This document shows, piece by piece, positions 5,891-59,955 of a DNA stretch of 64,000 nucleotides. Numbering within the stretch: the stretch's first letter is position 1; the number at the start of each line of letters is the position of its first letter. The notes under the pieces were generated by a model. It ran no database searches. It worked only from the letters and a program-made list of their open reading frames with translations, and was not told the DNA's origin. The stretch spans positions 17,154 through 81,153 of the forward strand of contig JACQJO010000002.1 in NCBI GenBank assembly GCA_016205025.1, in the 5' to 3' direction. The stretch comes from Elusimicrobiota bacterium. Lineage in GTDB: Bacteria; Elusimicrobiota; Elusimicrobia; JACQPE01. The position numbers were made by a program, and so were the translations under genes.

Positions 5891-7128
5891 ACGACTCCTT
5901 AAAGATCAATACCAAGCACGGCTCGAAGGAGGTTTCTTCTAAAAATGGAGATATTGGAAGACCTTTCAGGTATTACTTGGCCGAAGACACGATTGACCAA
6001 AAAGATATCAATCGCCTGATTGCCTGGCTAAAAAAATCTCCACGCCTAACAAAAGGCGAGGTCACTCTAAAATTTGAGGAAAAATGGAACCGTTGGCTGA
6101 AACGATCACACTCCGTATTTTGCAATTCTGGCTCCTCCGCTAATCTTTTAATGTACGATGCCCTCCTTCTATCGGGTAGACTCAAAAACAAAAAGGTTGT
6201 CGTCCCCAGCGTCGGCTGGGTCACAACAATAGCGCCAGCCATTCAGCTCGGATTCGAACCGATTATGTGCGAAGCGGATCCGGACACTTTCGGCCTCGAT
6301 CTTAATCATCTAGAGTCTACACTCAAAAAAGAACATCCTTCCACCGTCGTTTTAGTGCAAGTTTTAGGCATTCCCCATAAAATGAGAGAAATAATGATGC
6401 TGAAAGAAAAATATGGTTTTATTCTCCTGGAAGACGCTTGCGCAGCCATCGGGGCTTCCTACCATGGCCAAAACCTGGGGACCTTTGGTGATATGGCCAG
6501 TTTCTCGTTTTACTTCGGCCATCAATTTTCTACCATAGAGGGCGGCATGGTCTCGACCGACGATAAACAACTCAACGATCTTTTGCTCATGCTGCGTAGC
6601 CATGGTTGGAGCAAAGACCTGGATCGTGAAACACACAATGCCCTTGTGACTAGCCACAATATTGACGACTTCAATGCGCCTTTTGTTTTTTATGAACCCG
6701 GGTTTAACCTGCGCTCCACCGATCTGAATGCCTATATCGGCCTCGGGCAGTTGGATAAAATCGAATGGATTATCTCTCGACGGCAAAAAAATCACCATCG
6801 TTATAAAATGCATCTGGCTCAAAATTTTGTTATCCAAAAAAGCGACCCGGATTCTCGAGTTTGCAGCATACACTTTGGGCTCCTTGCGAAAGACACTGAG
6901 GAGCGGCGCCGCATTGTCCGCGCCCTAACTAACAATAGAATTGAGACGCGTATCTTTTCAGCCGGAAATCTAGGCCTCCATCCTTTTTGGGTTAAACGGT
7001 TTGGCAAAACCAGCTTTCCCATGGCGGATCGAATTCATCGCTGCGGTTTTTTCCTACCCAACAACCCGTCGCTTGGCATCAAGGATGTTGATTTCATTTC
7101 CCGGGTAGTTTTGGCTGGCAGACATTGA
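5887..7128 (+). CDS. DegT/DnrJ/EryC1/StrS-family PLP/PMP enzyme, probable nucleotide-sugar 3-dehydratase (ColD/E1-like)
   Basis: The block FSFYFGHQFSTIEGG aligns with FSFHxxKxxxxxEGG of sugar aminotransferases. It carries His at the Schiff-base Lys position, as in ColD and E1 3-dehydratases. ATGA overlap with the upstream Gmd-like gene. Confidence 0.7.
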   Translation: MNDSLKINTKHGSKEVSSKNGDIGRPFRYYLAEDTIDQKDINRLIAWLKKSPRLTKGEVTLKFEEKWNRWLKRSHSVFCNSGSSANLLMYDALLLSGRLKNKKVVVPSVGWVTTIAPAIQLGFEPIMCEADPDTFGLDLNHLESTLKKEHPSTVVLVQVLGIPHKMREIMMLKEKYGFILLEDACAAIGASYHGQNLGTFGDMASFSFYFGHQFSTIEGGMVSTDDKQLNDLLLMLRSHGWSKDLDRETHNALVTSHNIDDFNAPFVFYEPGFNLRSTDLNAYIGLGQLDKIEWIISRRQKNHHRYKMHLAQNFVIQKSDPDSRVCSIHFGLLAKDTEERRRIVRALTNNRIETRIFSAGNLGLHPFWVKRFGKTSFPMADRIHRCGFFLPNNPSLGIKDVDFISRVVLAGRH

Positions 7129-24545: not shown

Positions 24546-25460
24546 GTGACGGTTCGTTTAGCTTTAATCGGAGCCGGTCATTGGGGACGCGCCTACATTC
24601 GAACCATCAAAACAATACCTGGAGCGCTTTTGGTCCGCGTTGCCAGCAAAAATCCGCAAACCCGCTCCCTGGTTGATCCTGAAGTCAAAATCAGCGGCGA
24701 CTGGTGTCAAGTTGTCGGGTCTCAAGACATCGACGGCGTTATCGTGGCCACCCCGCCCGCGACTCACTTTGAAATTGGGATGCAAGCCCTGCGCTCGGGA
24801 TTGGCGGTTTTAATGGAGAAGCCCTTAACTCTGGATTTGGGACAAGCGCAAAATCTATTGAAATTTACGGCCAAACAAAATGGCCTGTTTATGGTGGATC
24901 ACACTTATCTATTTCATCCGGCTTATCGCCTTATTAAAAAAAAGAGCCGCGAACTGGGGGCGATCAAGCTGATCGTTTCAAGGGCCGGCAACAGAGGGCC
25001 ATTTCGAGAGGACACGCCCCCCTTGTGGGATTACGCGGCGCATGACCTGGCCATATGCCTTGACCTGGTGGGAAAACCACCCTCAAGCATCAGGGCTTTA
25101 AGAGAAAAAAAAGAAACCCTGCCGCAAGGACGGGGGGAAATCATTCGGTTAAAACTTGAGTTTCCCGGCTCCATTAAAGCCGATATCCAGATTGGCAACA
25201 TCCTGCCCGCCAAAGAACGTTTTTTTGAGGTTCAATTGAACGACGGCGCGTTGACGTTTGACAACATCGCGCAAACGCTCAAAGACGCGGGTAAAACCAT
25301 TCCTTATCCGCCGACGCCGCCTTTAACCCAGGCGGTTAAAGAATTCATCGAGATGATTGCCCTTGGCCGCTCTGATCATGAAAATTTAAAACTAGGCGTC
25401 GAGGTTATCCGGCTCCTGGCCCAATGCGACCGGATGTTATCGCCAAGCGAAAAGGTTTAG
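24546..25460 (+). CDS. Gfo/Idh/MocA-family oxidoreductase
   Basis: Track ORF 24405 overlaps the preceding gene. GTG 24546, 5 nt after the TAA of the upstream gene, gives VTVRLALIGAGHWGRAYI. VLMEKP motif present. Confidence 0.75.
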   Translation: MTVRLALIGAGHWGRAYIRTIKTIPGALLVRVASKNPQTRSLVDPEVKISGDWCQVVGSQDIDGVIVATPPATHFEIGMQALRSGLAVLMEKPLTLDLGQAQNLLKFTAKQNGLFMVDHTYLFHPAYRLIKKKSRELGAIKLIVSRAGNRGPFREDTPPLWDYAAHDLAICLDLVGKPPSSIRALREKKETLPQGRGEIIRLKLEFPGSIKADIQIGNILPAKERFFEVQLNDGALTFDNIAQTLKDAGKTIPYPPTPPLTQAVKEFIEMIALGRSDHENLKLGVEVIRLLAQCDRMLSPSEKV

Positions 25461-25582
25461 CGCAGGGGAGTCACCCTTGAACCCAGCGGAGGCAAAACCC
25501 CTCTCCTCCCTTCGGATCCTCTCCCCGCAATGCGGGGAGAGGATGGTTCTCGGGTCTGGGGGCAAGGGTGACTCCCCTGCGC
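25460..25582. repeat. Structured palindromic repeat, copy A (123 nt, nested hairpins)
   Basis: Perfect 20-bp outer stem (25460..25479 with 25563..25582) and perfect 13-bp inner hairpin (25516..25544). Second family member at 50234..50356. Confidence 0.7.
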
Positions 25583-25608
25583 TATACCCTTATCGGCAAG
25601 CTGATTTC

Positions 25609-26958
25609 TTAGCGAAAGCTGTCAAAACCTAAATTACTGTAGTGCAGACCCGGGCGGCGCATAATCTCTTGGCGCGCGTGCATCTGCCAGGGATCAAAAA
25701 ACAGGCCCGGCTTATTCATCAAAAAAAGGTGATTTAAAAGACTTCGATTGCGGTAAGAAGCGTGGTTGGTCATCACGATCACGGCGTCGGCTCCCTTAAA
25801 ACAGCCGGCGACATTCCTGGAATACTGGATTCCCAGACGCCGGATTTCAGCCGGATCCACGATAGGATCGTGACCGATAATTTTTTTAATGCCGGCCTGC
25901 CCAAGAAGAGCGGTCACATCCATGGTGGGGGAAAACCGGATATCCGCGGTCTCCGGGTGCCCCTTGTAAGCGAATCCCAAAATGCCTACGGTGGCTTGGG
26001 AAGGCGGTTTTCTGGCTATCTTGGTCAAAAAACGCTTGACCTTGGTCACGGCGTGAGAAGGCATAAGACTGTTGACGCGACGGCCATGAAACACAATATA
26101 GGGCTTAAACGCGATTTCCTTGGCGCTGTGCAGAAGAATAAAAGGGTCTTTGGTCAAACAGTAGCCGCCGACTCCGGGACTGGGATACGGCATGGAACTA
26201 CGGGGATAATCCTTATTGGAAGCCCCGATAATCTCAACGGGATCGAGATTAAACCCATCGCATATCAAAGCCACCTCATTGGCGAACCCGAAAATGACGT
26301 CGCGATAGCAGTTATTGAAAAGCTTGACCAACTCGGCCGCCTCAAGGCTTGAAACAGGAATAATTTGCGGCGTCATGAAACGGAAAAACCGGGCGGCTTT
26401 AGTCACGGAGGCGTCATCAACGCCTCCGATAATCTGCGGCAGGAATCGAAGCTCGGTCAAAGCGCTGCCTTCCGACGTTCGTTCAGGGGCGAAGACGACG
26501 GAAAAATCCCGGCCGGCCTTCAAACCGGAAACCCTTTCCACAATCGGAATAAACACATCGCGCGTTGTTCCGACCGGAACCGTGGAGCGAAGAAGCGCCA
26601 GGTTGCCCTGGCGGATCAACCGGCCGATCGACTCGGCCGCGGATTCGATATATTCAAGATTGGGCACTTTGTCGGCGCTGTCGACCGGCGTGCCGACCGC
26701 AACCACATAAATATCCGCCCGCGCCTCCCGCGGACCGTCAAAAACTTTAAAGCGGCGGTTAATATGCTTTTTAAGCATTTCGGTTAATCCCTTCTCGTGA
26801 ATGGGAGCGATGCCTTTTCTTAAATTCCGAACATTTCTTTTTCTAGGTTCCACCCCCAAAACCGTAAATCCCAGATCAGCCAAAACCGTCCCCATGGTCA
26901 GACCCACGTAACCCAAACCAAAAATAGCCACCTTGGGTTTTTCAATCGCCGGGCTCAC
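25609..26958 (-). CDS. Nucleotide-sugar (UDP-glucose/GDP-mannose family) 6-dehydrogenase
   Basis: KVAIFGLGYVGLTMG Rossmann and the catalytic-Cys block GVGGYCLTKDP. 449 aa. Confidence 0.85.
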   Translation of the reverse strand: MSPAIEKPKVAIFGLGYVGLTMGTVLADLGFTVLGVEPRKRNVRNLRKGIAPIHEKGLTEMLKKHINRRFKVFDGPREARADIYVVAVGTPVDSADKVPNLEYIESAAESIGRLIRQGNLALLRSTVPVGTTRDVFIPIVERVSGLKAGRDFSVVFAPERTSEGSALTELRFLPQIIGGVDDASVTKAARFFRFMTPQIIPVSSLEAAELVKLFNNCYRDVIFGFANEVALICDGFNLDPVEIIGASNKDYPRSSMPYPSPGVGGYCLTKDPFILLHSAKEIAFKPYIVFHGRRVNSLMPSHAVTKVKRFLTKIARKPPSQATVGILGFAYKGHPETADIRFSPTMDVTALLGQAGIKKIIGHDPIVDPAEIRRLGIQYSRNVAGCFKGADAVIVMTNHASYRNRSLLNHLFLMNKPGLFFDPWQMHARQEIMRRPGLHYSNLGFDSFR

Positions 26959-43129: not shown

Positions 43130-45064
43130 ATGTGCGGCATCGCAGGAATTCTTGATTTAACGGGCCACAACGCCGTTCGACCCGAAATCGTCCGGCAAAT
43201 GACAAAAAATCTTATCCATCGGGGCCCCGATGGCGAAGGAACTTTTACCGATGGACCATTAGGTTTTGGGTTTCAAAGACTGGCCATCATTGATCTGGCC
43301 ACCGGCGATCAACCCATGTCGAGCGCCTGCCAGAACGGCCGCTATGTCATTATTTTTAACGGCGAGATCTACAACTTTCCGGAATTAAGGCGCACGCTGG
43401 AACAAAAGGGGCACCCTTTCGCCACCAAAAGCGACACCGAGGTTATCCTGCACCTGTTCGAAGATAAACAAGAAAAATGCTTGGATGATCTGATCGGGAT
43501 GTTCGCCCTGGCCATATGGGACAAAAAAGAGCGCCGGCTTTTTGTGGCGCGCGACCGTTTGGGCAAAAAACCGCTTTATTACGGCGTTTTTAACGGTCAA
43601 TTCGTTTTCGGTTCCGAAATCAAGGCCTTGGCCAAGCACCCTGATTTTCAAGCCGAAATTGATCCTAAAGCGCTTGATCTTTACCTAACTTACCAGGCGG
43701 TGCCCACGCCTTTAACGATTTATAAAAACGTGCGACGGTTGCCGCCGGCCAGTTTTCTCTGGATCGACGCGGCCAAGGGCCCGGGGGAACCGGTCCCTTA
43801 TTGGCGTTTAAATTACACCCCTAAATTCAGCGGCAACGTTGAGGAAGCCAAAGAGCGGCTTTTAGGTATCTTAGAAACAGTCACCCGCGGCCGGCTGATT
43901 TCGGATGTTCCCTTGGGGGCTTTTCTGTCAGGCGGAATTGATTCCAGCGCGGTTGTGGCCATGATGGCCAGGGCTTCATCGTCGCCGGTTAAAACCTTCA
44001 CAATCGGGTTTAATGAAAAAAATTTTTCCGAAGCCGAATACGGCCGGATGGTGGCCGAACAGTACGGCTGTGACCACACCGAATTCACGGTCCAATCCAA
44101 TATGCTCGAAGCGCTCCCTAAAATCCTGTGGCATTATGACCAGCCCTTCGCGGACCCTTCGGCAGTGCCCAGCTATTACGTGGCCCGGGAAACAAGACGC
44201 GCGGTCACCGTGGCTTTAAACGGAGACGGGGGGGACGAAGCGTTCGGCGGGTATCTACGCTACAGCGGGGATCACCTTAATATGGTCATCAACCAATGGC
44301 TGCCCGCCGGCCTATCGCGCCCCATTTTTAAAACACTCGGCCATCTCCCCGCCAATCTAGCTAAACCATTAAATTACTTAAGACGCTTCGGGCAGGCCTT
44401 GGAAAACGATGTCTATGAAACCAACTACCGGCTTTTCTGCTATTTTGATCTGGCTCAAAAGCGGGAACTCTACAGCGCCGAATGGCTTAACCGAATCAGC
44501 CAACCCATAGGCCGCGAACACCTTGACCGGTTAAGCCAGAATGGAAACGCGTCTCATCCGCTGGACAAAATTTTCGCGGCCGACTACAGGGGTTACCTTC
44601 CGGATTGTCTTTTAGTCAAAATGGACATCGCCTCTATGGCTAATTCGCTGGAAGCCAGATCGCCTTTCTTGGATCACCGGCTGGCGGAGTTCGCGGCCAG
44701 TCTTCCGGTGGAATGGAAAATTAAGGGATTAACCACCAAATGGATACTCAAAACCGCTCTGGAAGAAAAAAAGATTCTACCCCCAGCCATCACCAGACGC
44801 CGCAAAATGGGTTTTGGCGCTCCGGTCGGCCGCTGGCTAAAAGAGGATTTTAAGGATTTCACCCGCTCAACGATTCTTAACCCAAAGGCGATCAACCGCG
44901 GCTACTTTAAAAAAGAAGCGGTCGAAAGACTAATTACCGAACACCAAACCGGAAAAGAAAACCACGACTACCGCCTCTGGGCCCTCTTGTGCCTGGAACT
45001 CTGGCACCAAATTTTCATAGATAAAACCCTCAAACCCTCCGACACGCTGACAACCGCCAAGTGA
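43130..45064 (+). CDS. asnB: Asparagine synthase (glutamine-hydrolysing) family amidotransferase
   Basis: MCGIAG N-terminal nucleophile Cys and PP-loop FLSGGIDSS. 644 aa. Context suggests a WbpS-like sugar amidotransferase role rather than Asn synthesis. Confidence 0.85.
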   Translation: MCGIAGILDLTGHNAVRPEIVRQMTKNLIHRGPDGEGTFTDGPLGFGFQRLAIIDLATGDQPMSSACQNGRYVIIFNGEIYNFPELRRTLEQKGHPFATKSDTEVILHLFEDKQEKCLDDLIGMFALAIWDKKERRLFVARDRLGKKPLYYGVFNGQFVFGSEIKALAKHPDFQAEIDPKALDLYLTYQAVPTPLTIYKNVRRLPPASFLWIDAAKGPGEPVPYWRLNYTPKFSGNVEEAKERLLGILETVTRGRLISDVPLGAFLSGGIDSSAVVAMMARASSSPVKTFTIGFNEKNFSEAEYGRMVAEQYGCDHTEFTVQSNMLEALPKILWHYDQPFADPSAVPSYYVARETRRAVTVALNGDGGDEAFGGYLRYSGDHLNMVINQWLPAGLSRPIFKTLGHLPANLAKPLNYLRRFGQALENDVYETNYRLFCYFDLAQKRELYSAEWLNRISQPIGREHLDRLSQNGNASHPLDKIFAADYRGYLPDCLLVKMDIASMANSLEARSPFLDHRLAEFAASLPVEWKIKGLTTKWILKTALEEKKILPPAITRRRKMGFGAPVGRWLKEDFKDFTRSTILNPKAINRGYFKKEAVERLITEHQTGKENHDYRLWALLCLELWHQIFIDKTLKPSDTLTTAK

Positions 45065-46296
45065 GCCCTGTCACCGTTCTCTACATCATTACTGATCTTG
45101 ATTTCGGCGGCACCGAAAGGCAGTTATCTTATCTCGTTGAAAATCTCGATCAAAACAGATACGAACCGGTCGTCCTTTCCCTTAAAACCCAAGGGCGCGC
45201 GGCCAAAGAGCTGGCAGATAAAAATTTTTCAATTTATTCAGTAAGCTCGCCTATGAATCCTTTTGTAATCTGGCAAAAACTGCGCGAAATCCGCGACAAG
45301 CATCGGCCCAAAATTATTCATACATTCTTATTCCGGGCCAACATCGTGGGCAGAATTTTTGGGCGTTTTGGATTCAAAAAAGAAAATCGTCCGGTAGTAA
45401 TCTCATCCGTCCGGGTTTGGGACAACCGATGGCTGGCGCTTCGGTTGGAAAAATGGACAAAAAACTGGGCCGATTTTTTTATTTTTAATTCCGCGATCGT
45501 TCAACAAAAATATGGCCTAGCCATTGGCATCAAAAATGACGACAAAAACTGCAGAACGATCTTAAACGCTATTGATCCCGAACCCTACAAAAGAGCCTGC
45601 GCCAACAGAAAAGAAACGCGCGCATCGCTGGGATTTTACGACTCCCACCGCGTCATTATTAGTATAGGCCGCTTAGATGAGCAAAAGGGATTTCTCTATC
45701 TAATAGAAGCTTTTAAGACTGTATACGAAAACAACAAATCAGTCCGCCTTATTATCGTAGGCGATGGCCCCATGCGAGAAAAACTGAATCAAGGGATTGA
45801 TCGGTTTTTTCCGTCTCCCTCTCCCTTGCCCTTTTCGCAGAGCTTCAAGGACGCGGGCCCGCCAGAGGCGGGACGATCCCCGCAGAGGGGAGGGGGTTGG
45901 GGTGAGGGTGATAAAGCAGTTCGTCTTCTGGGTTACCGCAACGATATCCCTGAACTTTTAGCCGCCAGCGACTGCCTTGTTCTGGCCTCCCTTTGGGAAG
46001 GCTCCCCAAACGTCATCCTGGAAGCCTGGGCCACGGGAACCGTTCCAGTTGTGGCGACTGGCGTGGGGGGAACGCCGGATATAATCAAGGATGAACAATC
46101 CGGCCTGCTGGTGCCTCCCAAAAATCCGGAAGCTTTGGCCAACGCGATTAAAAAGATATTCCGAGAAAACCTAGGTCCTCATTTAGCTGCCCAGGGGGGA
46201 CAAAAATTAAGTCATCACCTGCCGCCCGCCATGGCCGCCAGCGTCCAGGCGATCTACGATAAACTCTTCCAAGCTCGCATTGCTTACCCCTCTTGA
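45061..46296 (+). CDS. Glycosyltransferase family 4 (GT-B, Glycos_transf_1)
   Basis: VLYIITDLDFGGTERQ N-domain and EGSPNVILEAWATGTVPVVATGVGGTPDII (EX7E). GTG start overlaps the asnB stop. Contains an in-frame GC-rich insertion. Confidence 0.8.
   Translation: MSPVTVLYIITDLDFGGTERQLSYLVENLDQNRYEPVVLSLKTQGRAAKELADKNFSIYSVSSPMNPFVIWQKLREIRDKHRPKIIHTFLFRANIVGRIFGRFGFKKENRPVVISSVRVWDNRWLALRLEKWTKNWADFFIFNSAIVQQKYGLAIGIKNDDKNCRTILNAIDPEPYKRACANRKETRASLGFYDSHRVIISIGRLDEQKGFLYLIEAFKTVYENNKSVRLIIVGDGPMREKLNQGIDRFFPSPSPLPFSQSFKDAGPPEAGRSPQRGGGWGEGDKAVRLLGYRNDIPELLAASDCLVLASLWEGSPNVILEAWATGTVPVVATGVGGTPDIIKDEQSGLLVPPKNPEALANAIKKIFRENLGPHLAAQGGQKLSHHLPPAMAASVQAIYDKLFQARIAYPS
45805..45912. repeat. GC-rich imperfect-palindromic insertion inside the GT4 CDS (possible decayed copy of the 25460/50234 repeat family)
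   Basis: Encodes FPSPSPLPFSQSFKDAGPPEAGRSPQRGGGWGEG, placed where GT4 enzymes normally run GDGPxR...xRVxxLG with only a short linker. The DNA contains the hairpin cccgcc-agag-ggcggg and CT-rich/GA-rich flanks. It shares ttgccctt with copy B and gggtga with copy A. Confidence 0.35.
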
Positions 46297-47018: not shown

Positions 47019-47555
47019 GTGGCCATCCAAATAGGAAACAAGGCGCCGGATTTTGATCTGACCGGCGTTGACGGAAAAAAGTGCAGCTTAAAAAATTTCG
47101 CGGATAAACCCGCGCTGGCGGTAATTTTTTCCTGCAACCATTGCCCCTACGTGATCGCTTACGAAGACCGGATGGCGGCGATTCAAAAAGAGTTCGGCTC
47201 CAAGGGGCTGCAAGTCGTGACGATCAATTCCAACGAGGATCAAAACTACCCCGAGGACAGCTTTGACAACATGAAAAAGCGCGCGAAAGAGAAAAATTTT
47301 CCTTTTCCTTATCTGCGCGACGAAACGCAAGCCGTGGCCAAGGCTTATGGCGCGGCTAAAACGCCGCACGTTTTTCTTTTTGATAAAAACCGCGCCCTGG
47401 TTTATGCCGGAACCATTGACGACAATTGGGAACACCCGGAAAAAGTCAAACTGCGCTACTTGGCCTTAGCCATAGAAGCGGTTCTCTCCGGCCGGCCGCC
47501 CAACCCGAAAGAAACGTTTCCGGTGGGCTGCTCCATTAAGTGGCGAAAAAATTAG
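47019..47555 (+). CDS. Thioredoxin-fold thiol-disulfide oxidoreductase (AhpC/TSA/redoxin family)
   Basis: IGNKAPDFDLTGVDGKKCSLKNF, FSCNHCPYV (CxxC) and TPHVFLFD. Confidence 0.75.
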   Translation: MAIQIGNKAPDFDLTGVDGKKCSLKNFADKPALAVIFSCNHCPYVIAYEDRMAAIQKEFGSKGLQVVTINSNEDQNYPEDSFDNMKKRAKEKNFPFPYLRDETQAVAKAYGAAKTPHVFLFDKNRALVYAGTIDDNWEHPEKVKLRYLALAIEAVLSGRPPNPKETFPVGCSIKWRKN

Positions 47556-47645
47556 GATTTAGTATTTAGGATATAGGATTTAGCAAATGAAAGAAGCCCT
47601 CGTTTCCGACTCCCAAATCCTAAATCCTAACTCCTAAATCCTTTT
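47554..47645 (+). terminator. Long imperfect hairpin (30-nt arms, 26/30 paired, 29-nt loop) plus TTTT; candidate intrinsic terminator/attenuator
   Basis: Left arm 47554..47583 (aggatttagtatttaggatataggatttag) and right arm 47613..47642 (ccaaatcctaaatcctaactcctaaatcct). The arms are built from short aggattt/aaatcct units. A T-run follows, then ATG 47646. Confidence 0.45.
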
Positions 47646-48902
47646 ATGCTCTGTCCCAAACGCTCTTGGTATCCCCATTCTCCGCCTGTTCTGCGTTGGT
47701 TTAGCTGGTTTTGCTGCAGGTTATTGGCGCTGGCTTTCGGCATTAGGGGCAAGGGTTTAGACCGGCTGGCCAAAGGGCCCGTTCTGGTCATCGCCCCTCA
47801 CGTCAATTTCTTGGACCCAATTTTTATTCTGGGAACCATGCCGCGGCCGCCGCGGTTTATCGCAGACTCTTACTTCACTTTCCTTAATCCCTTCTTGGCG
47901 TGGGCCATGTGGTTGGCCGGCGTCACTCCGGTGGACCGCACCAAGACCGATCCCTACGCAGTGCGCCAATTCTTAAGGCTTCTGACGCAAAATGAGCTTT
48001 GTATTTTATTTCCGGAGGGGGGAAGATCGCTGGATGGAAAAATCCTGCCTCCTTTGGCCCAGGCGGTCAAATTGGCGGCCAAACTCAAGGTACCGGTGGC
48101 CAGCGTGGCCCTTAAAGGAGCCTACGACTCTTGGCCTCGATGGGATCCCCTGATCCGCCAGCCTTGGGGCCGCGTAACGGTGCAGTTCGTTGAATTTCTA
48201 AGGCCGGCCACGGCAGACCAAGGCTCACAGCACCCGCCCAGCCTGGCCAAAGTTTATGATTTCAAAAAAAAGATCGCCCTTGAGGAGGAAAAAATCCTCC
48301 TCACCCAGGCTCTCTCCAGGGCAGCCGAAGGGGAATCGCGAGCCATTAATCTTTTGCGCTGGGGAAGACCCGGGGCAATCCCCCGGCTCCTCTGCTTTTG
48401 CCCGGACTGCGTCAAGCCCAACGGCCTTTCCTGGCGAAGCCGAGAAAACATCCTGGCCTGCTCGGCCTGCGGCCTGCGCCTGAAGGTCGGCCGCCGCGAA
48501 TTAATCCGGATTAACGAAGGCCAAAACTCCGCGCCCATGCCCATTGATCAATGGTTTGAAACGATGCAAAACGCGTTCAGGAAAAACGAGTCGTCAAGCT
48601 ATCTCTTCGCCTCAAAAGTCCTGGCTAGAATCCAAAAAACTTTCCAAAAAAATTCCACGCCGCTTGAACCCTCTTCCCTGCGCGTTGACAGCAAAACGTT
48701 CGCCTTGAGAACCGCTTCCCATGGAATGGCCCAGATGCCGGTATCCGTAGCGGCGCGGGGCAATCTCAAGGGCACCGAGGCGCTTGAAATTATTCATGGC
48801 GGCCAAAAAATTACCGTTCAAACGAACGGTGAATCCCTTGTTCCCTGGCTGATCTTGATGCGTAAAGCCGCGGGCTGGAGCGATTTCTTTTCAGAAATCT
48901 AG
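47646..48902 (+). CDS. Lysophospholipid (PlsC-family) acyltransferase with C-terminal zinc-ribbon-containing extension
   Basis: HX4D motif in APHVNFLDP and FPEGGRS motif. Extra 200 aa or so with CFCPDC...CSACG. Confidence 0.7.
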   Translation: MLCPKRSWYPHSPPVLRWFSWFCCRLLALAFGIRGKGLDRLAKGPVLVIAPHVNFLDPIFILGTMPRPPRFIADSYFTFLNPFLAWAMWLAGVTPVDRTKTDPYAVRQFLRLLTQNELCILFPEGGRSLDGKILPPLAQAVKLAAKLKVPVASVALKGAYDSWPRWDPLIRQPWGRVTVQFVEFLRPATADQGSQHPPSLAKVYDFKKKIALEEEKILLTQALSRAAEGESRAINLLRWGRPGAIPRLLCFCPDCVKPNGLSWRSRENILACSACGLRLKVGRRELIRINEGQNSAPMPIDQWFETMQNAFRKNESSSYLFASKVLARIQKTFQKNSTPLEPSSLRVDSKTFALRTASHGMAQMPVSVAARGNLKGTEALEIIHGGQKITVQTNGESLVPWLILMRKAAGWSDFFSEI

Positions 48903-49288: not shown

Positions 49289-50217
49289 AACGCGTCGTTT
49301 CCCTGATCGCCAGCGCGACCGAAATCGTCTGCGCGTTAGGTTTTGAAAAAAACCTGGTCGGCCGCTCCCACGAATGCGACTTTCCGTCGTATGTTAAGAA
49401 ATTGCCTGTTTGCACCCAACCCAAGCTCCGCGTCAATGCTTCCAGCTTTAAGGTTGACCGCCAGGTCAAAACCCTGCTGGAACAAGGGCTGTCGGTTTAC
49501 AAGGTTCACGCGGATAAATTCAGGAAACTCAAGCCAACCGTCATCATTACCCAGACGCAATGCGAGGTTTGCGCCGTTTCCGAATCAGACGTCAAAGCGG
49601 CTGTTGACCAATGGCTGGGCGCCAACGGACACGCCGGTAAAAAACCGGCGGTCGTTTCACTTAAGCCGAATTGTTTGGCGGACGTATGGAAAGATATCAA
49701 GCGCGTCGCCGTGGCCCTGGGCAAATCGCGAAAAGGTCAAAACGTTGTCACGCGCCTGCAAAAGAGAATGAAAACGATCAAAACGCGAGCCCAGCGCCTG
49801 TCCGAGCGGCCCAGCGTGGCCTTTATTGAATGGATCGAGCCTCTGATGACCGGAGGAAACTGGATGCCCGAATTAATCGAAATGGCCGGGGGTATCAATT
49901 TATTTGGGCAGGCCGGCCGCCATTCGCCCTATCTCAAATGGCAAGACCTTGTGGCTAAAAATCCCGAGACCATTATCATCGCTCCCTGCGGATATGACAT
50001 CAGAAAAACCAAACAAGAGATCAAGGCGCTGCTTAGAAAACCCGAATGGCCGGGTCTCAAAGCAGTCCGCGCCAACCGCGTCTATTTGGCGGACGGAAAT
50101 CAATACTTTAACCGCCCCGGCCCACGGTTGGTCGAATCCCTCGAAATTCTGGCCGAAATCCTGCACCCCCAAGAATTCAACTTCGACCACGCCGGCAAAG
50201 GCTGGCAAAAAGTTTAG
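49285..50217 (+). CDS. Cytoplasmic BtuF-like (Peripla_BP_2/TroA-fold) cobalamin/metal-chelate binding protein; start codon non-canonical or lost
   Basis: The frame is open from 49267. (I)ERVVSLIASATEIVCALGFEKNLVGRSHECDFP matches the conserved extreme N-terminus of this family, yet the first canonical start in frame is TTG 49402. ATA at 49285 overlaps the upstream TAG. No signal peptide. Confidence 0.6.
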   Translation: MERVVSLIASATEIVCALGFEKNLVGRSHECDFPSYVKKLPVCTQPKLRVNASSFKVDRQVKTLLEQGLSVYKVHADKFRKLKPTVIITQTQCEVCAVSESDVKAAVDQWLGANGHAGKKPAVVSLKPNCLADVWKDIKRVAVALGKSRKGQNVVTRLQKRMKTIKTRAQRLSERPSVAFIEWIEPLMTGGNWMPELIEMAGGINLFGQAGRHSPYLKWQDLVAKNPETIIIAPCGYDIRKTKQEIKALLRKPEWPGLKAVRANRVYLADGNQYFNRPGPRLVESLEILAEILHPQEFNFDHAGKGWQKV

Positions 50218-50233
50218 TAATCTAAATGTACGG

Positions 50234-50356
50234 GTTTAGCATGGGGGAGTTGCCCTTGAACCCAGTAGCGGAGGGGGCCCCGACCCAGCAGGGTTGGGGG
50301 AACCGCCGGGACTGGTTCCCGGGTCTGGGGGCAAGGGCAACTCCCCCATGCTAAAC
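50234..50356. repeat. Structured palindromic repeat, copy B (123 nt)
   Basis: Perfect 25-bp outer stem (50234..50258 with 50332..50356). Shares the cccttgaacccag and ggttcYcgggtctgggggcaaggg blocks with copy A. Confidence 0.7.
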
Positions 50357-50373
50357 CTTTACATCTAAATTCA

Positions 50374-57671: not shown

Positions 57672-58586
57672 CTAATTATTAATTCGGACGTTTCTATACC
57701 TGGCAAATTCAGTCAGGACCATAGCCGTCACAATCAAACCGCCGCCTAAAACGCCTATTAAACGGAATTCCTCCGCGCCCAGCGTCCACGCAAACATAGC
57801 CGCGAATACGGGTTCCAGGGAAAATATGAGGGAAACCTTAAGCGGCGCGATATATTTTTGAGCCGTCATCTGGATAAAAAAGGCGGTCAGGGTGGGGAAA
57901 AGGGCTAAAAAGAGAATAACCCATGCGCCTTTTGCGGAACTAATGCCGAAAGAACTGCCGGAAATGCCGGCCAACGTCAAACAAAAAAGACCGGTCATCC
58001 AAAATTGGTGAAAAGAAAGGCTGGGAATGTCTAAATCCCGGCGGACATACCGGTCCGTCATTAAAAGATGGCTGGCATAAGCCAGGGCCGACAAAATGGT
58101 CAACCCGTCGCCTAAGTTAAACTCCCGGATGCCGCCGGTTAAAATCCAGAGGCCCAAAACAGCCAGGCCAACCGCGGCCCACTGGATCGCCAAAACAGGT
58201 TGGCCAAAAAGGAAGCGTAAAATCAGAGGGACAAACAGCACGAAAAGGCCGGTAATGAAACCGGAATTGGAAGCGCTAGTGTAGCGAAGTCCGATAGTCT
58301 GCGTGATATAAAGCAGCGTCAGCCAAAAAGCCAGCACCGCCGCCTCTTTCAGGATACCCCAACCGGATGGTACCAGGTACCAAATGGACGAAAATGGCCA
58401 TTTGGTACCTGGTACCATCCACGGAGTCAAACATAAGGCCGCCAATAAAAACCTATACCCCACCAAAACGACCGGGTCAACGCTGGAAAGGGCGTCTTTG
58501 ACAAGATAAAAGGTGGCCCCCCAAATCGCGGCGCAGTAAAAAAGACCTAAATAATAAAAACCTACAGGCATGGCAGGGCACATCAT
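57672..58586 (-). CDS. EamA/DMT-superfamily transporter
   Basis: About ten TM segments in two EamA-like halves (YTSASNSGFI, LEPVFAAMFAW). Track ORF extends to 58655 and would overlap the upstream ATPase gene. ATG 58586, 58583 or 58571 is a more plausible start. Confidence 0.7.
   Translation of the reverse strand: MMCPAMPVGFYYLGLFYCAAIWGATFYLVKDALSSVDPVVLVGYRFLLAALCLTPWMVPGTKWPFSSIWYLVPSGWGILKEAAVLAFWLTLLYITQTIGLRYTSASNSGFITGLFVLFVPLILRFLFGQPVLAIQWAAVGLAVLGLWILTGGIREFNLGDGLTILSALAYASHLLMTDRYVRRDLDIPSLSFHQFWMTGLFCLTLAGISGSSFGISSAKGAWVILFLALFPTLTAFFIQMTAQKYIAPLKVSLIFSLEPVFAAMFAWTLGAEEFRLIGVLGGGLIVTAMVLTEFARYRNVRINN
58364..58419. repeat. Perfect 23-bp inverted repeat with 10-nt spacer inside the EamA CDS
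   Basis: ggatggtaccaggtaccaaatgg (58364..58386), acgaaaatgg, ccatttggtacctggtaccatcc (58397..58419). Contains four GGTACC sites. Confidence 0.9.
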
Positions 58587-58620
58587 ATTAAGAAGGGAAG
58601 GCCTACTCTTATACTGTCTT

Positions 58621-59955
58621 TTACAGCATAGCCTTGGTGACGCGCATGACCTCATCCCACGTGGTCACACCCATCGCCACCTTGGCCGCTCCGTCCATCC
58701 AGAGGGTGCGCATGCCGCTCTGAATAGCGGAATTCCGGATCACCTCTCCGGACGATCTGTTTAAGGTATGGTTTCTCAAAGCTTCATTGAAATGCATGAC
58801 TTCAAAAATGCCCAACCGGCCGACGTAACCCCGGCCCCCGCAGTTGGAACAACCCATGGGCTGTTTAAATTGAGCCGTGGGTTGCTGCAAAATTTTATAC
58901 ACCTGATCGGCCTCCTCTTTGGTCATCCAGGGAAGGCTGGCCTGCAACTGCTCCTGCGTGGGAGGATTGGTCGGCTGGGCGCAATGCACGCAAAGCTTTC
59001 TGACCAGCCTCTGCGCGATGGCTCCCAAAATAGACGACGTCATCAAATAGGGCGGCATGCCGACTTCAAACAAGCGCTCGATAACCGCGGTGGCGTTGAT
59101 GGTATGAAGGGTGGTTAAAACCAAGTGACCGGTCAAGCTGGCGCGCATCGCGATTTCGGCGGTGGAAGCATCGCGGATTTCGCCCACCATAATGACATTG
59201 GGGTCTTGCCTTAAGATTACGCGCAGTCCTTCTTCAAAAGTGAACCCGGTTCGCGCGCTGATTTGAGCTTGATTCATGCCGTCTAAACGATACTCCACCG
59301 GATCTTCCAACGTCATAATATTGGTTTCTTTTCTGTTTAAACGCTGCAACATGGCGTAAAGCGTGGTGGTTTTTCCGGAACCCGTGGCGCCGGTAACGAA
59401 AATAATGCCGTAGGTGCTCTGAATCAGCTTGGCCATCAAAGTTAAATCATCCGGCAAAAATCCGACCTGCTCTAATGGAAGACCGATGGCGGCGTGGTCC
59501 ATGACCCTCAAAACTAATTTCTCGCCGTCAACGGTTGGGAAAGAAGAAACGCGAAATTGAACGGGCCGCCCCGTTACGTTCTTCATAAAACGGCCGTCCT
59601 CAACGCGGAAAGGATTGGGGGGGGTGGGATCAAATCCCGCCAAAATCCTGAAACGCACGTTCAAAGGAAAATTGGGATGAGACGGTCCGTGAATGTAATC
59701 TTCAAGCAAGCCGTCAACGCGAAACCGGACCTTCATCTGCTCGCCGTGAAGCTCGATATGGATGTCGGAAGCCCTCTCTTTGATGGCGGAGTCCAAAACG
59801 GAGTCCGCCATCTGAACTACCAGAGCGGAAGAATCCTCGCCCCCCTGGACTACGCGGCCTATGCTGTCGGTGTAATTCTCCTGCAGATTTGAAAAAACCC
59901 TGGGCTGGCCCGGTGTTGCGACCTCATCTTTTTTGGTCTTACCGAAGAATTCCAT
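58621..59955 (-). CDS. GspE/PilB-family secretion/pilus-assembly ATPase (short form)
   Basis: Walker A GATGSGKTTT, IMVGEIRD, GHLVLTTLHT and tetracysteine CVHC...CSNCGGRGY. At 444 aa it lacks the long N-terminal domains of canonical PilB/GspE. Confidence 0.85.
   Translation of the reverse strand: MEFFGKTKKDEVATPGQPRVFSNLQENYTDSIGRVVQGGEDSSALVVQMADSVLDSAIKERASDIHIELHGEQMKVRFRVDGLLEDYIHGPSHPNFPLNVRFRILAGFDPTPPNPFRVEDGRFMKNVTGRPVQFRVSSFPTVDGEKLVLRVMDHAAIGLPLEQVGFLPDDLTLMAKLIQSTYGIIFVTGATGSGKTTTLYAMLQRLNRKETNIMTLEDPVEYRLDGMNQAQISARTGFTFEEGLRVILRQDPNVIMVGEIRDASTAEIAMRASLTGHLVLTTLHTINATAVIERLFEVGMPPYLMTSSILGAIAQRLVRKLCVHCAQPTNPPTQEQLQASLPWMTKEEADQVYKILQQPTAQFKQPMGCSNCGGRGYVGRLGIFEVMHFNEALRNHTLNRSSGEVIRNSAIQSGMRTLWMDGAAKVAMGVTTWDEVMRVTKAML

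Follow-up and report, generated by a model that had tools for sequence, protein, structure and literature searches.

Small palindromic mobile repeats with compensatory changes in their stems are already known, among them bcr1, REPINs, ERIC and Correia elements. The Correia/NEMIS repeats of Neisseria and the ERIC/IRU repeats of Enterobacteria are 100-155 bp long, possess terminal inverted repeats and form long RNA hairpins when co-transcribed; they insert near gene ends and can change where transcripts and open reading frames (ORFs) start or stop, at the 3' or 5' end. Rickettsia palindromic elements (RPE) and the nested small repeats of cyanobacteria can join coding sequence or nest together, and the insertion sequences (IS) of the IS66 family create 8-bp target duplications. 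The inverted repeats of IS66 members start with GTAAGCG or GTAACCG (PMC12888890). In the Bacillus cereus group, bcr1 is an element of about 155 bp that resembles miniature inverted-repeat transposable elements (MITEs), and its stable fold is kept by compensatory base-pair changes (PMC3184786). Compensatory changes on the two hairpin sides are likewise common in REPINs, whose fold is thought to be needed by the mobilising enzyme (PMC3116915). Here we describe a nested-hairpin repeat, copy A, from a window of 64,000 nucleotides of an Elusimicrobiota bacterium (contig JACQJO010000002.1, positions 17,154 to 81,153). Copy A is probably one member of a new MITE-like family of GC-rich, non-coding palindromic mobile elements, about 135-147 bp long, with terminal inverted repeats and target-site duplications.

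At the level of observation, this is a dispersed non-coding palindromic repeat that inserts with target duplication at gene boundaries and whose arms stay complementary despite change. The family is known so far from two groundwater Elusimicrobia genomes, in which its nested hairpins measure 135-147 bp. It is new; our literature searches found nothing describing this repeat family.

Copy A and its gene context

Copy A lies between two convergent genes, a GFO/IDH/MocA oxidoreductase gene on the + strand that ends at 25460 and a UDP-glucose dehydrogenase gene on the - strand (25609-26958). The closest homologue of the oxidoreductase is only 45% identical. The initial annotation described an element of 123 nt that starts at the G of the upstream TAG stop (25460) and fills the convergent gap, with a perfect 20-bp outer stem, gcgcaggggagtcacccttg (25460-25479) paired with caagggtgactcccctgcgc (25563-25582), and a perfect 13-bp inner hairpin, atcctctccccgc-aat-gcggggagaggat (25516-25544). 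The position, the stem and the inner hairpin are all as described, and the hairpin is real; the true extent, however, is larger and comprises 145 bp with terminal repeats. The inverted-repeat arms span 25451-25486 and 25556-25591. The predicted RNA fold has a free energy of -94.4 kcal/mol (z -9.3), and 0 of 200 shuffles were as good. Copy A and its flanks contain the following features.

25441-25448, no strand: left target-site duplication, CGCCAAGC, within the 3' end of the upstream oxidoreductase gene
25449-25593, + strand: copy A, 145 nt, an inverted repeat (fold z -9.3); match of the covariance model R1, introduced below, at 25450-25594 (74.7 bits, E 2e-16)
25449-25461, + strand: left terminal inverted repeat, GAAAAGGTTTAGC, with 2 mismatches to the subfamily consensus GTAAGGGTTTAGC; now coding
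25460-25479, + strand: 5' arm of the perfect 20-bp outer stem
25482-25486, + strand: CCCAG, 5' half of the short helix that closes the junction; its partner CTGGG is at 25556-25560
25516-25544, + strand: inner hairpin ATCCTCTCCCCGC-AAT-GCGGGGAGAGGAT, 13 bp, a module from a different small hairpin repeat family
25545-25562, + strand: conserved 3' core block, GGTTCTCGGGTCTGGGGG; 2 matches in the window, 0 expected by chance
25563-25582, + strand: 3' arm of the 20-bp outer stem
25581-25593, + strand: right terminal inverted repeat, GCTATACCCTTAT
25594-25601, no strand: right target-site duplication, CGGCAAGC, 7/8 identical to the left one
25602-25604, + strand: TGA in frame with the right duplication; presumably the stop of the uninterrupted oxidoreductase gene (...M L S P S *), with the stop of the convergent gene 4 nt away

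As copy A demonstrates, an inserted copy can donate a few codons and a stop to the neighbouring gene, in this case GAA AAG GTT and the TAG at 25458-25460. When copy A is excised in silico, the right repeat is followed by the in-frame TGA; before the insertion, the oxidoreductase presumably ended in ...MLSPS*, and it now ends in ...MLSPSEKV* with the codons and the TAG of the element. The gene annotation changes accordingly, since the element contributes the end of one gene (its final three codons and stop).

Two independent Logan assemblies reproduce the oxidoreductase C-terminus with these codons; hence the element is not an assembly artefact of the window. The element also accounts for breaks in assemblies: in two samples, three independent Logan contigs (L001, whose end is at 6808-6843, L022 and L023) each stop 15-50 nt into the arms of copy A, and one of them approaches from the other side. 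When the same samples were searched for an extension of the window contig or for alleles with an empty site, only short Logan contigs were found, all of which end inside the arms. Because a long perfect inverted repeat breaks de Bruijn assemblies, copies of the family are probably under-represented in short-read assemblies.

Copy B and further family members

The second copy of the window, copy B, represents the canonical form. It had been reported to retain the blocks CCCTTGAACCCAG and GGTTCYCGGGTCTGGGGGCAAGGG, and we find both at only those two places in the 64 kb; GGTTCYCGGGTCTGGGGGCAAGGG is unique to copies A and B in the window even when 3 mismatches are allowed, with 0 matches expected by chance. 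The inverted-repeat arms of copy B lie at 50219-50265 and 50325-50371, and its RNA fold reaches -104 kcal/mol (z -10.1 against shuffles). From the outside inwards, copy B consists of the terminal repeats GTACGGGTTTAGC / GCTAAACCTTTAC, a 31-bp outer stem, an AA/GG loop, CCCAG/CTGGG and GTAGCGGAG.

50220-50227, no strand: left target-site duplication, ATCTAAAT, an exact 8/8 direct repeat (null tail 0.019)
50228-50362, + strand: copy B, 135 nt, canonical form; R1 match at 50229-50363 (146.5 bits), fold z -10.1
50278-50299, + strand: hairpin CCCCGACCC-AGCA-GGGTTGGGG
50299-50319, + strand: hairpin GGAACC-GCCGGGACT-GGTTCC
50363-50370, no strand: right target-site duplication, ATCTAAAT, 3 nt before the ATG of a family 2 glycosyltransferase (GT2) gene

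No record of this GT2 protein was found. The gene upstream of copy B has its native end at 50208-50217, AAAAGTTTAG (K V stop), 10 nt before the insertion. This end is nearly the same as the element-derived AAAAGGTTTAG (25450-25460) upstream of copy A, which may be chance or reflect a preference for insertion near end-like sequence.

The initial annotation had proposed a search for more copies, and four were found beyond A and B, all in one groundwater Elusimicrobia metagenome-assembled genome (MAG), JACQWW01. A scan of species-representative genomes with the pattern TTGAACCCAG-N(42-72)-GGTCTGGGGGCAA yielded three matches, at the loci L002, L003 and L004, all from this genome. The covariance model R1 was built from the four canonical copies (B, L002c, L003 and L004), and with this model a divergent sixth copy, L002d, was found.

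L002, 2937-3083: copy L002d, divergent; fold z -9.4
R1 score of the four canonical copies: 146-161 bits
R1 score of copy A: 75 bits
R1 score of copy L002d: 44.7 bits, E 8e-9

The model detected nothing in the window beyond copies A and B, and no copy in 106 kb from seven sets of related Elusimicrobia loci. A 20-mer scan of JGI metagenomes gave one chance match without a partner arm (L005); scans of IMG/VR gave no copy and one chance terminator hairpin in a high-GC contig (L018), and PLSDB plasmids contained no copy. Judged by these collections, the family is thus rare and confined to a lineage. A candidate third copy in the window at 47731-47761, with 77% identity to the 3' block, lies inside an acyltransferase gene without a partner arm and was rejected as a chance match. 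The tetranucleotide correlation of the two host genomes is 0.88-0.92, compared to 0.97-0.98 within one genome; judged by this composition, the hosts are different organisms, though probably related. No AccC was identified for the organism of the window.

Anatomy and subfamilies

The canonical copies share one architecture. From the outside inwards, a terminal repeat is followed by a perfect stem of 30-32 bp, an AA/GG internal loop and the CCCAG/CTGGG helix; the core then consists of GTAGCGGAG(GGGG), the hairpins CCCGCCC-AGCA-GGGCGGG and GGGAACC-GCCGGGACT-GGTTCCC, and GGGT. The AA/GG loop is invariant in all five copies with a canonical shell (A, B, L002c, L003, L004). Over 36-47 nt the two arms show 87-89% complementarity, with pairing of the termini up to the last 1-3 bases.

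Two subfamilies are distinguished by their shells. In copies A, B and L003 (subfamily 1) the shell reads GTAAGGGTTTAGC-NN-GGGGGAGTTG, in L002c and L004 (subfamily 2) it reads CTGCGATTCAGACAGTAGGGG-NN-TG, and L002d possesses a third shell, whose outer stem is unrelated (GGCGATAAATTCGTT.../...AACGAATTTATCGCC). L002d nevertheless retains GTAGCGGAG and the CCCGCC-loop-GGCGGG and GGGAACC-loop-GGTTCCC hairpins. The internal three-way junction (GTAGCGGAG, CCCGCC..GGCGGG, GGGAACC..GGTTCCC) is thus conserved within three unrelated outer stems.

Of this plan, copy A retains the shell and the core edges (GCGGAGG ... GGTTCTCGGGT), but its centre is swapped for CCCCTCTCC...CCTCTCCCCGC-AAT-GCGGGGAGAGG. Accordingly, the 13-bp inner hairpin is outside the family core and stands in place of the canonical central hairpins. 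Because this centre is a foreign hairpin module, copy A is a chimera. This chimeric copy and the constant junction with exchangeable termini are what is unusual about the family. Relatives of its inner hairpin are present at L003 5982-6021, L003 5395-5440 and L002 7745-7783.

Together with 25516-25544 of the window, these three sites make up a separate small hairpin repeat family, (CCCCTCACCCTSCC)CTCTCCCCGC-NNN-GCGGGGAGAGG. A 43-nt stretch of it has 86-91% identity to many unannotated sites in Sinorhizobium and Rhizobium replicons (81 records, at most 8 places per record), a resemblance across phyla of a tiny GC-rich hairpin.

Insertion at gene boundaries

Direct repeats flank most of the copies. 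Their significance was estimated against a null of 20,000 window positions with the same geometry, and the results were combined over all five canonical-shell copies by Fisher's method.

Copy A: CGCCAAGC (25441-48) / CGGCAAGC (25594-601), null tail 0.007
Copy B: ATCTAAAT (50220-27 / 50363-70), 8/8, null tail 0.019
Copy L004: ACAGTCG / ACAGTCG, 7/7, null tail 0.051
Copy L002c: TTCATTTT(AT) / TTCATTTT(TTAT), null tail 0.019
Copy L003: none convincing, null tail 0.5

Four of the five copies carry direct repeats of 7-10 bp at most 12 nt from their ends (combined p ~3e-4). At copy A, the best ungapped match of the flanks is TTATCGCCAAGC / TTATCGGCAAGC (score 9); read as 8 bp, the duplication directly adjoins the terminal repeats. 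A target duplication of about 8 bp accompanies insertion (7-10 bp observed).

At L002c, one copy of the duplicated ATAAAATGAA provides the stop of accB and the other the start of accC, and removal of the element restores an ATGA overlap of these two genes. Precisely such an overlap without the element is found in four independent contigs of a related Elusimicrobia genome (L010-L013). This empty-site comparison concerns one site, and the relative, although the closest available, is distant (AccC 68% identical). The accC gene of JACQWW01 (L002 5368-6800) is itself out of frame after about residue 325, relatives being 452 aa long; in this low-coverage MAG, an error of sequencing or assembly is the probable cause.

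All surviving copies are located at gene boundaries, i.e. immediately before or after stop codons, at a stop/start overlap or next to a tRNA 3' end. Besides copies A and B, L003 and L002d abut a stop codon, L004 adjoins the 3' end of a tRNA-Pro gene, and L002c is inside the accB-accC operon. Four copies are oriented sense to the flanking transcription (A, B, L003, L002d) and two antisense (L002c, L004). The neighbours are functionally unrelated: a sugar oxidoreductase, an ABC binding protein and GT2, accB/accC, tRNA-Pro, a DUF4175 protein, and a shikimate kinase and peptidase.

The element itself is non-coding. Its six-frame peptides matched no protein in a database of 5.8 billion proteins, which contains no ORF that covers it. 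Among the window ORFs of at least 150 aa, none has a transposase, integrase, reverse transcriptase or Y1 transposase domain.

Covariation of the stem

Between copies A and B, 5 of the 20 outer-stem positions differ and all five are compensated on the other arm, as originally counted. The pattern extends to the larger set. In the 20 bp of stem nearest the junction, all 100 cells of five copies (A, B, L002c, L003, L004) from two genomes are Watson-Crick pairs, although nine columns vary; over stem positions 1-26, the proportion is 129/130. For the four canonical copies, 99.5% of the cells pair and 10 pairs are changed on both sides. Their covariation score was reached by 0 of 500 shuffles and the count of double-changed pairs by 1 of 500; when the partners are slid by one column, pairing falls to 55-62% and double changes disappear.

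In the outer 12 bp, the existence of two non-homologous shells, and not point substitution, accounts for some of the apparent covariation. Genuine double substitutions are found in at least seven columns (stem positions 7, 8, 9, 11, 16, 17 and 18), including one transversion pair, C-G versus A-T, at position 18. Sister copies within one genome are especially clear: the six base differences between L002c and L004 (95.5% identical) amount to exactly three compensated pairs, of which one belongs to the inner hairpin, while all 35 unpaired sites agree. Compensation in the inner hairpin takes the form CCCGCCC/GGGCGGG versus CCCGTCC/GGACGGG. Mismatches occur only in the outermost few base pairs and in the short inner hairpins, and there is no G-T pair among the 100 outer-stem cells.

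Compensated changes, together with the shuffle and slide controls, indicate more than simple sequence repetition. This part of the initial interpretation holds: the fold, or the complementarity of the arms, is actively maintained. The other part, that selection for an RNA or a cruciform with a function for the host is the cause, is not established: the copies bear the marks of transposition (target-site duplications and an empty orthologous site), occur in both orientations relative to local transcription and lack a terminator T-run, and outer stems free of G-T pairs fit arm-to-arm correction of the DNA or structure-dependent mobilisation at least as well as selection on RNA. The family is a clean bacterial example of copies that diverge almost exclusively by compensated base pairs, and it can be used to ask whether selection of the fold for mobility, correction of palindromes at the DNA level, or an RNA function is at work.

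Proposed mechanism and its weaknesses

Several features expected of a MITE are present, namely small size, lack of coding capacity, terminal inverted repeats, flanking duplications and one empty orthologous site. The initial annotation had considered a match to a known REP (repetitive extragenic palindromic) or MITE family as an alternative to a structure under selection; no such known family was identified, but the hallmarks of MITEs are there. According to our model, the element would be moved by an enzyme provided in trans. Propagation would be limited to copies that can fold into the long hairpin, because the fold, as a single strand or cruciform, would be needed by the mobilising machinery, as has been argued for REPINs (PMC3116915) and bcr1 (PMC3184786); in addition or instead, template switching or repair inside the quasi-palindrome might remove arm mismatches from the DNA (PMC7202029). 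Such correction would explain the total absence of G-T in the long stem. A possible effect on the host, such as an mRNA 3' hairpin, would be secondary. As a mobile family, the element would flag recent changes of the genome in a little-known phylum, from which we know of no cultured close relatives.

Several observations weigh against a MITE-like family. Only six copies are known, so that the duplication length and the termini are poorly defined; no convincing direct repeat flanks L003, and duplication length and offset are not uniform in subfamily 2, where the repeats of L002c and L004 are 2-10 nt away from the palindrome. A matching full-length IS was found neither in the window nor in the fetched loci. 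The identity of copies between the genomes (92-94%) is as high as within a genome. The termini differ by subfamily (GTAAGGGTTTAGC, CTGCGATTCAGAC, GGCGATAAATTCG) while the junction is constant, which is the reverse of a classical MITE and awkward for a transposase that reads terminal repeats. Finally, in the three cases where canonical copies differ on one side of a pair only, the result is always G-T on the sense strand, which lends the data a weak RNA-like flavour, and the lack of changes at unpaired sites between the sister copies suggests a sequence-specific constraint on the core, as would also be expected of a functional RNA.

Alternative explanations

What survives best among the alternatives is that the arms are symmetrised purely at the DNA level, by intramolecular template switching or repair in extruded hairpins, without any selection of structure. 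Template switching is an established mutational mechanism by which imperfect inverted repeats are corrected (PMC7202029). The strictly Watson-Crick outer stems, with no G-T intermediates despite at least seven independent double changes, speak for it, as does the confinement of mismatches to the outermost base pairs and the short inner hairpins. As a complete explanation we regard it as possible, if doubtful: it accounts for the upkeep of complementarity but not for the identity of the element, and it leaves unexplained both the invariance of the unpaired core beside changing stems and the recurrence of the junction architecture within the wholly different stem of L002d. Symmetrisation is compatible with a MITE-like family and probably contributes to its evolution.

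It is unlikely that the copies represent a host-selected structured RNA, i.e. a cis-acting intergenic or 3' untranslated region element or a small RNA, whose junction core binds a factor or protects mRNA ends, whose closing stem can covary freely and whose copies form a dispersed gene family rather than parasites. In its favour, the core sequence is kept across three unrelated outer stems including L002d, the inner hairpin shows compensated changes too, the sole single-sided changes are wobble-compatible, and sister copies are identical at unpaired sites; moreover, four of six copies are sense to adjacent genes, and identity between the two genomes is high. These points are opposed by the target-site duplications and the empty orthologous site, according to which the copies came by insertion. 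Two copies (L002c, L004) are antisense to local transcription, the flanking genes have unrelated functions, and the element is absent from the 106 kb of related Elusimicrobia loci. Zero G-U in 100 outer-stem cells is unusual for helices selected as RNA, and the central hairpins are lost from copy A. Nor does the element belong to a known RNA family, which the initial annotation had proposed to look for: Rfam at gathering thresholds returned 0 matches for the whole window, and at an E-value threshold the two copies matched nothing but generic long-hairpin (miRNA) models, far below the thresholds of these, and RT-13 with a noise-level 13.6 bits. A tRNA-like reading was rejected, as was a retron-like one, there being no reverse transcriptase nearby.

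Slightly further down the scale, and in our judgement rather improbable, is a family whose core is recognised by its shape or motif. The element would then be mobilised via a folded single strand, perhaps by an RNA-templated route similar to that of short interspersed elements (SINE-like); alternatively, the core would be a functional RNA or protein-binding module that hitch-hikes in palindromic shells. Because the conserved part is the junction and not the termini, a folded single-stranded mobilisation intermediate is conceivable, and an RNA-templated route would also fit the variable duplications of 7-10 bp. If the junction rather than the termini were indeed recognised, this would be an unusual mode of mobilisation.

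The remaining two explanations have very little to recommend them. It is very improbable that a bidirectional terminator, or a hairpin stabilising mRNA, arose in situ in the convergent gap: copy A does sit between convergent genes and its hairpin is very stable (-94 kcal/mol), but a terminator scan of both strands at A and B revealed no terminator-like site and no T-run on either side, copy B and L002d are between co-directional genes, efficient termination at L002c in the accB-accC junction would presumably deprive accC of its transcript, and the stops at A were 4 nt apart before the insertion, hence the hairpin came in as one piece. Membership in a known structure-specific recombination system (REP/REPIN with the Y1 transposase RAYT, an IS200/IS605-type end or an integron attC site) is similarly improbable, for although a folded palindrome of about 130 nt just after stop codons, GTAG in the core (CCCAGTAGCGG) and in the subfamily-2 stem, and the compensatory changes documented for REPINs would suit it, direct repeats flank the element and RAYT/IS200-type and attC recombination make none, the arms are not REP-like short palindromes, no Y1 transposase is among the window ORFs, the ends GGTTTAGC...GCTAAACC have a GTT.../...AAC polarity that, read by eye, is opposite to R''/R', and the neighbours are operon genes and not cassettes, with no integrase in the window.

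Other palindromes and repeats in the same sequences

Positions 1-47000 of the window mostly represent one very large glycan-biosynthesis locus that encodes many epimerase/dehydratases and transferases (GT2, GT4, GT9 and PMT_2), several methyltransferases, an asparagine synthase and four radical-SAM enzymes of the B12-binding or SPASM type. Within a GT1-family glycosyltransferase ORF (45061-46296, + strand), a GC-rich stretch at 45805-45912 (...CCGTCTCCCTCTCCCTTGCCC...GGGCCCGCCAGAGGCGGGAC...GGGGAGGGGGTTGGGGTGAGGG) is in frame; the protein is longer by about 36 residues (FPSPSPLPFSQSFKDAGPPEAGRSPQRGGGWGEGD) and its Pfam Glycos_transf_1 match falls into two stretches. The fold of the GC-rich stretch is not significant (z -0.9). 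It resembles a small GGGGAGAGGGTTGGGGTGA repeat of L003 and may be an RPE-like in-frame repeat insertion.

Two further inverted repeats were noticed in the window. The first, at 47555-47646, is AT-rich and intergenic, between a redoxin and an acyltransferase gene, with three AGGATTTAG-like units opposed to three CTAAATCCT units; the likeness of this unit to the GGGTTTAGC end of the element may be chance. The second, at 58365-58420, is a perfect 23-bp inverted repeat, GGATGGTACCAGGTACCAAATGG / CCATTTGGTACCTGGTACCATCC, with a 10-nt spacer. It is located in the 3' part of an EamA-family gene (57672-58655, - strand), about 200 nt from the overlap of this gene with a T2SSE ATPase gene (58621-59955, - strand).

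In JACQWW01, a composite palindrome of 137 nt at L003 5911-6047 has the outer stem CCCCGAACCTCCT/AGGAGGTTCGGGG and three small hairpins inside, one of them of the CTCTCCCCGC family; it is a nested element of the same size class as copy A. The long palindromes at L003 4065-4140 and L004 2441-2528 have common ends, ATGGGGTCAGGTCTTCAT...ATGAAGACCTGACCCCAT, and different centres, and look like another palindromic repeat family of this genome.

Comparison with known systems

Among the known systems, bcr1 is similar to the present family in size, in being non-coding and dispersed in intergenic regions, and in its short flanking direct repeats and variable presence among relatives. There is no sequence similarity, however, and the phylum is different. 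The duplications of bcr1 measure 5 bp and its fold is cruciform-like with two stem-loops, compared to about 8 bp and a single closing stem of 30 bp around a three-way junction here. Transcription of bcr1 is documented.

With REPINs, the family shares the character of long hairpin-forming, non-autonomous repeats. A REPIN consists of two inverted REPs, i.e. short palindromes with a 5' GTAG, and is found in hundreds of copies without target duplication and with a RAYT gene. The present element, in contrast, has direct repeats, few copies and no REP substructure, and there is no RAYT among the window ORFs. The Correia and ERIC families have conserved termini and a TA or short duplication, while here the termini vary and the junction is conserved; again, no sequence similarity exists.

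The likeness to IS66 consists of GTAAG at both ends of L003, GTACG/GTAAA in copy B and the 8-bp duplications of A and B. Only 4-5 terminal bases agree, and the ends of subfamily 2 and L002d are unrelated, so an IS66-family IS as the source of subfamily 1 is a lead and not a classification. Finally, like RPE and the nested repeats of cyanobacteria, copy A supplies three codons and a stop to a gene and carries the hairpin of another family in its centre; the sequences and hosts differ, and nesting is deduced here from one chimeric copy.

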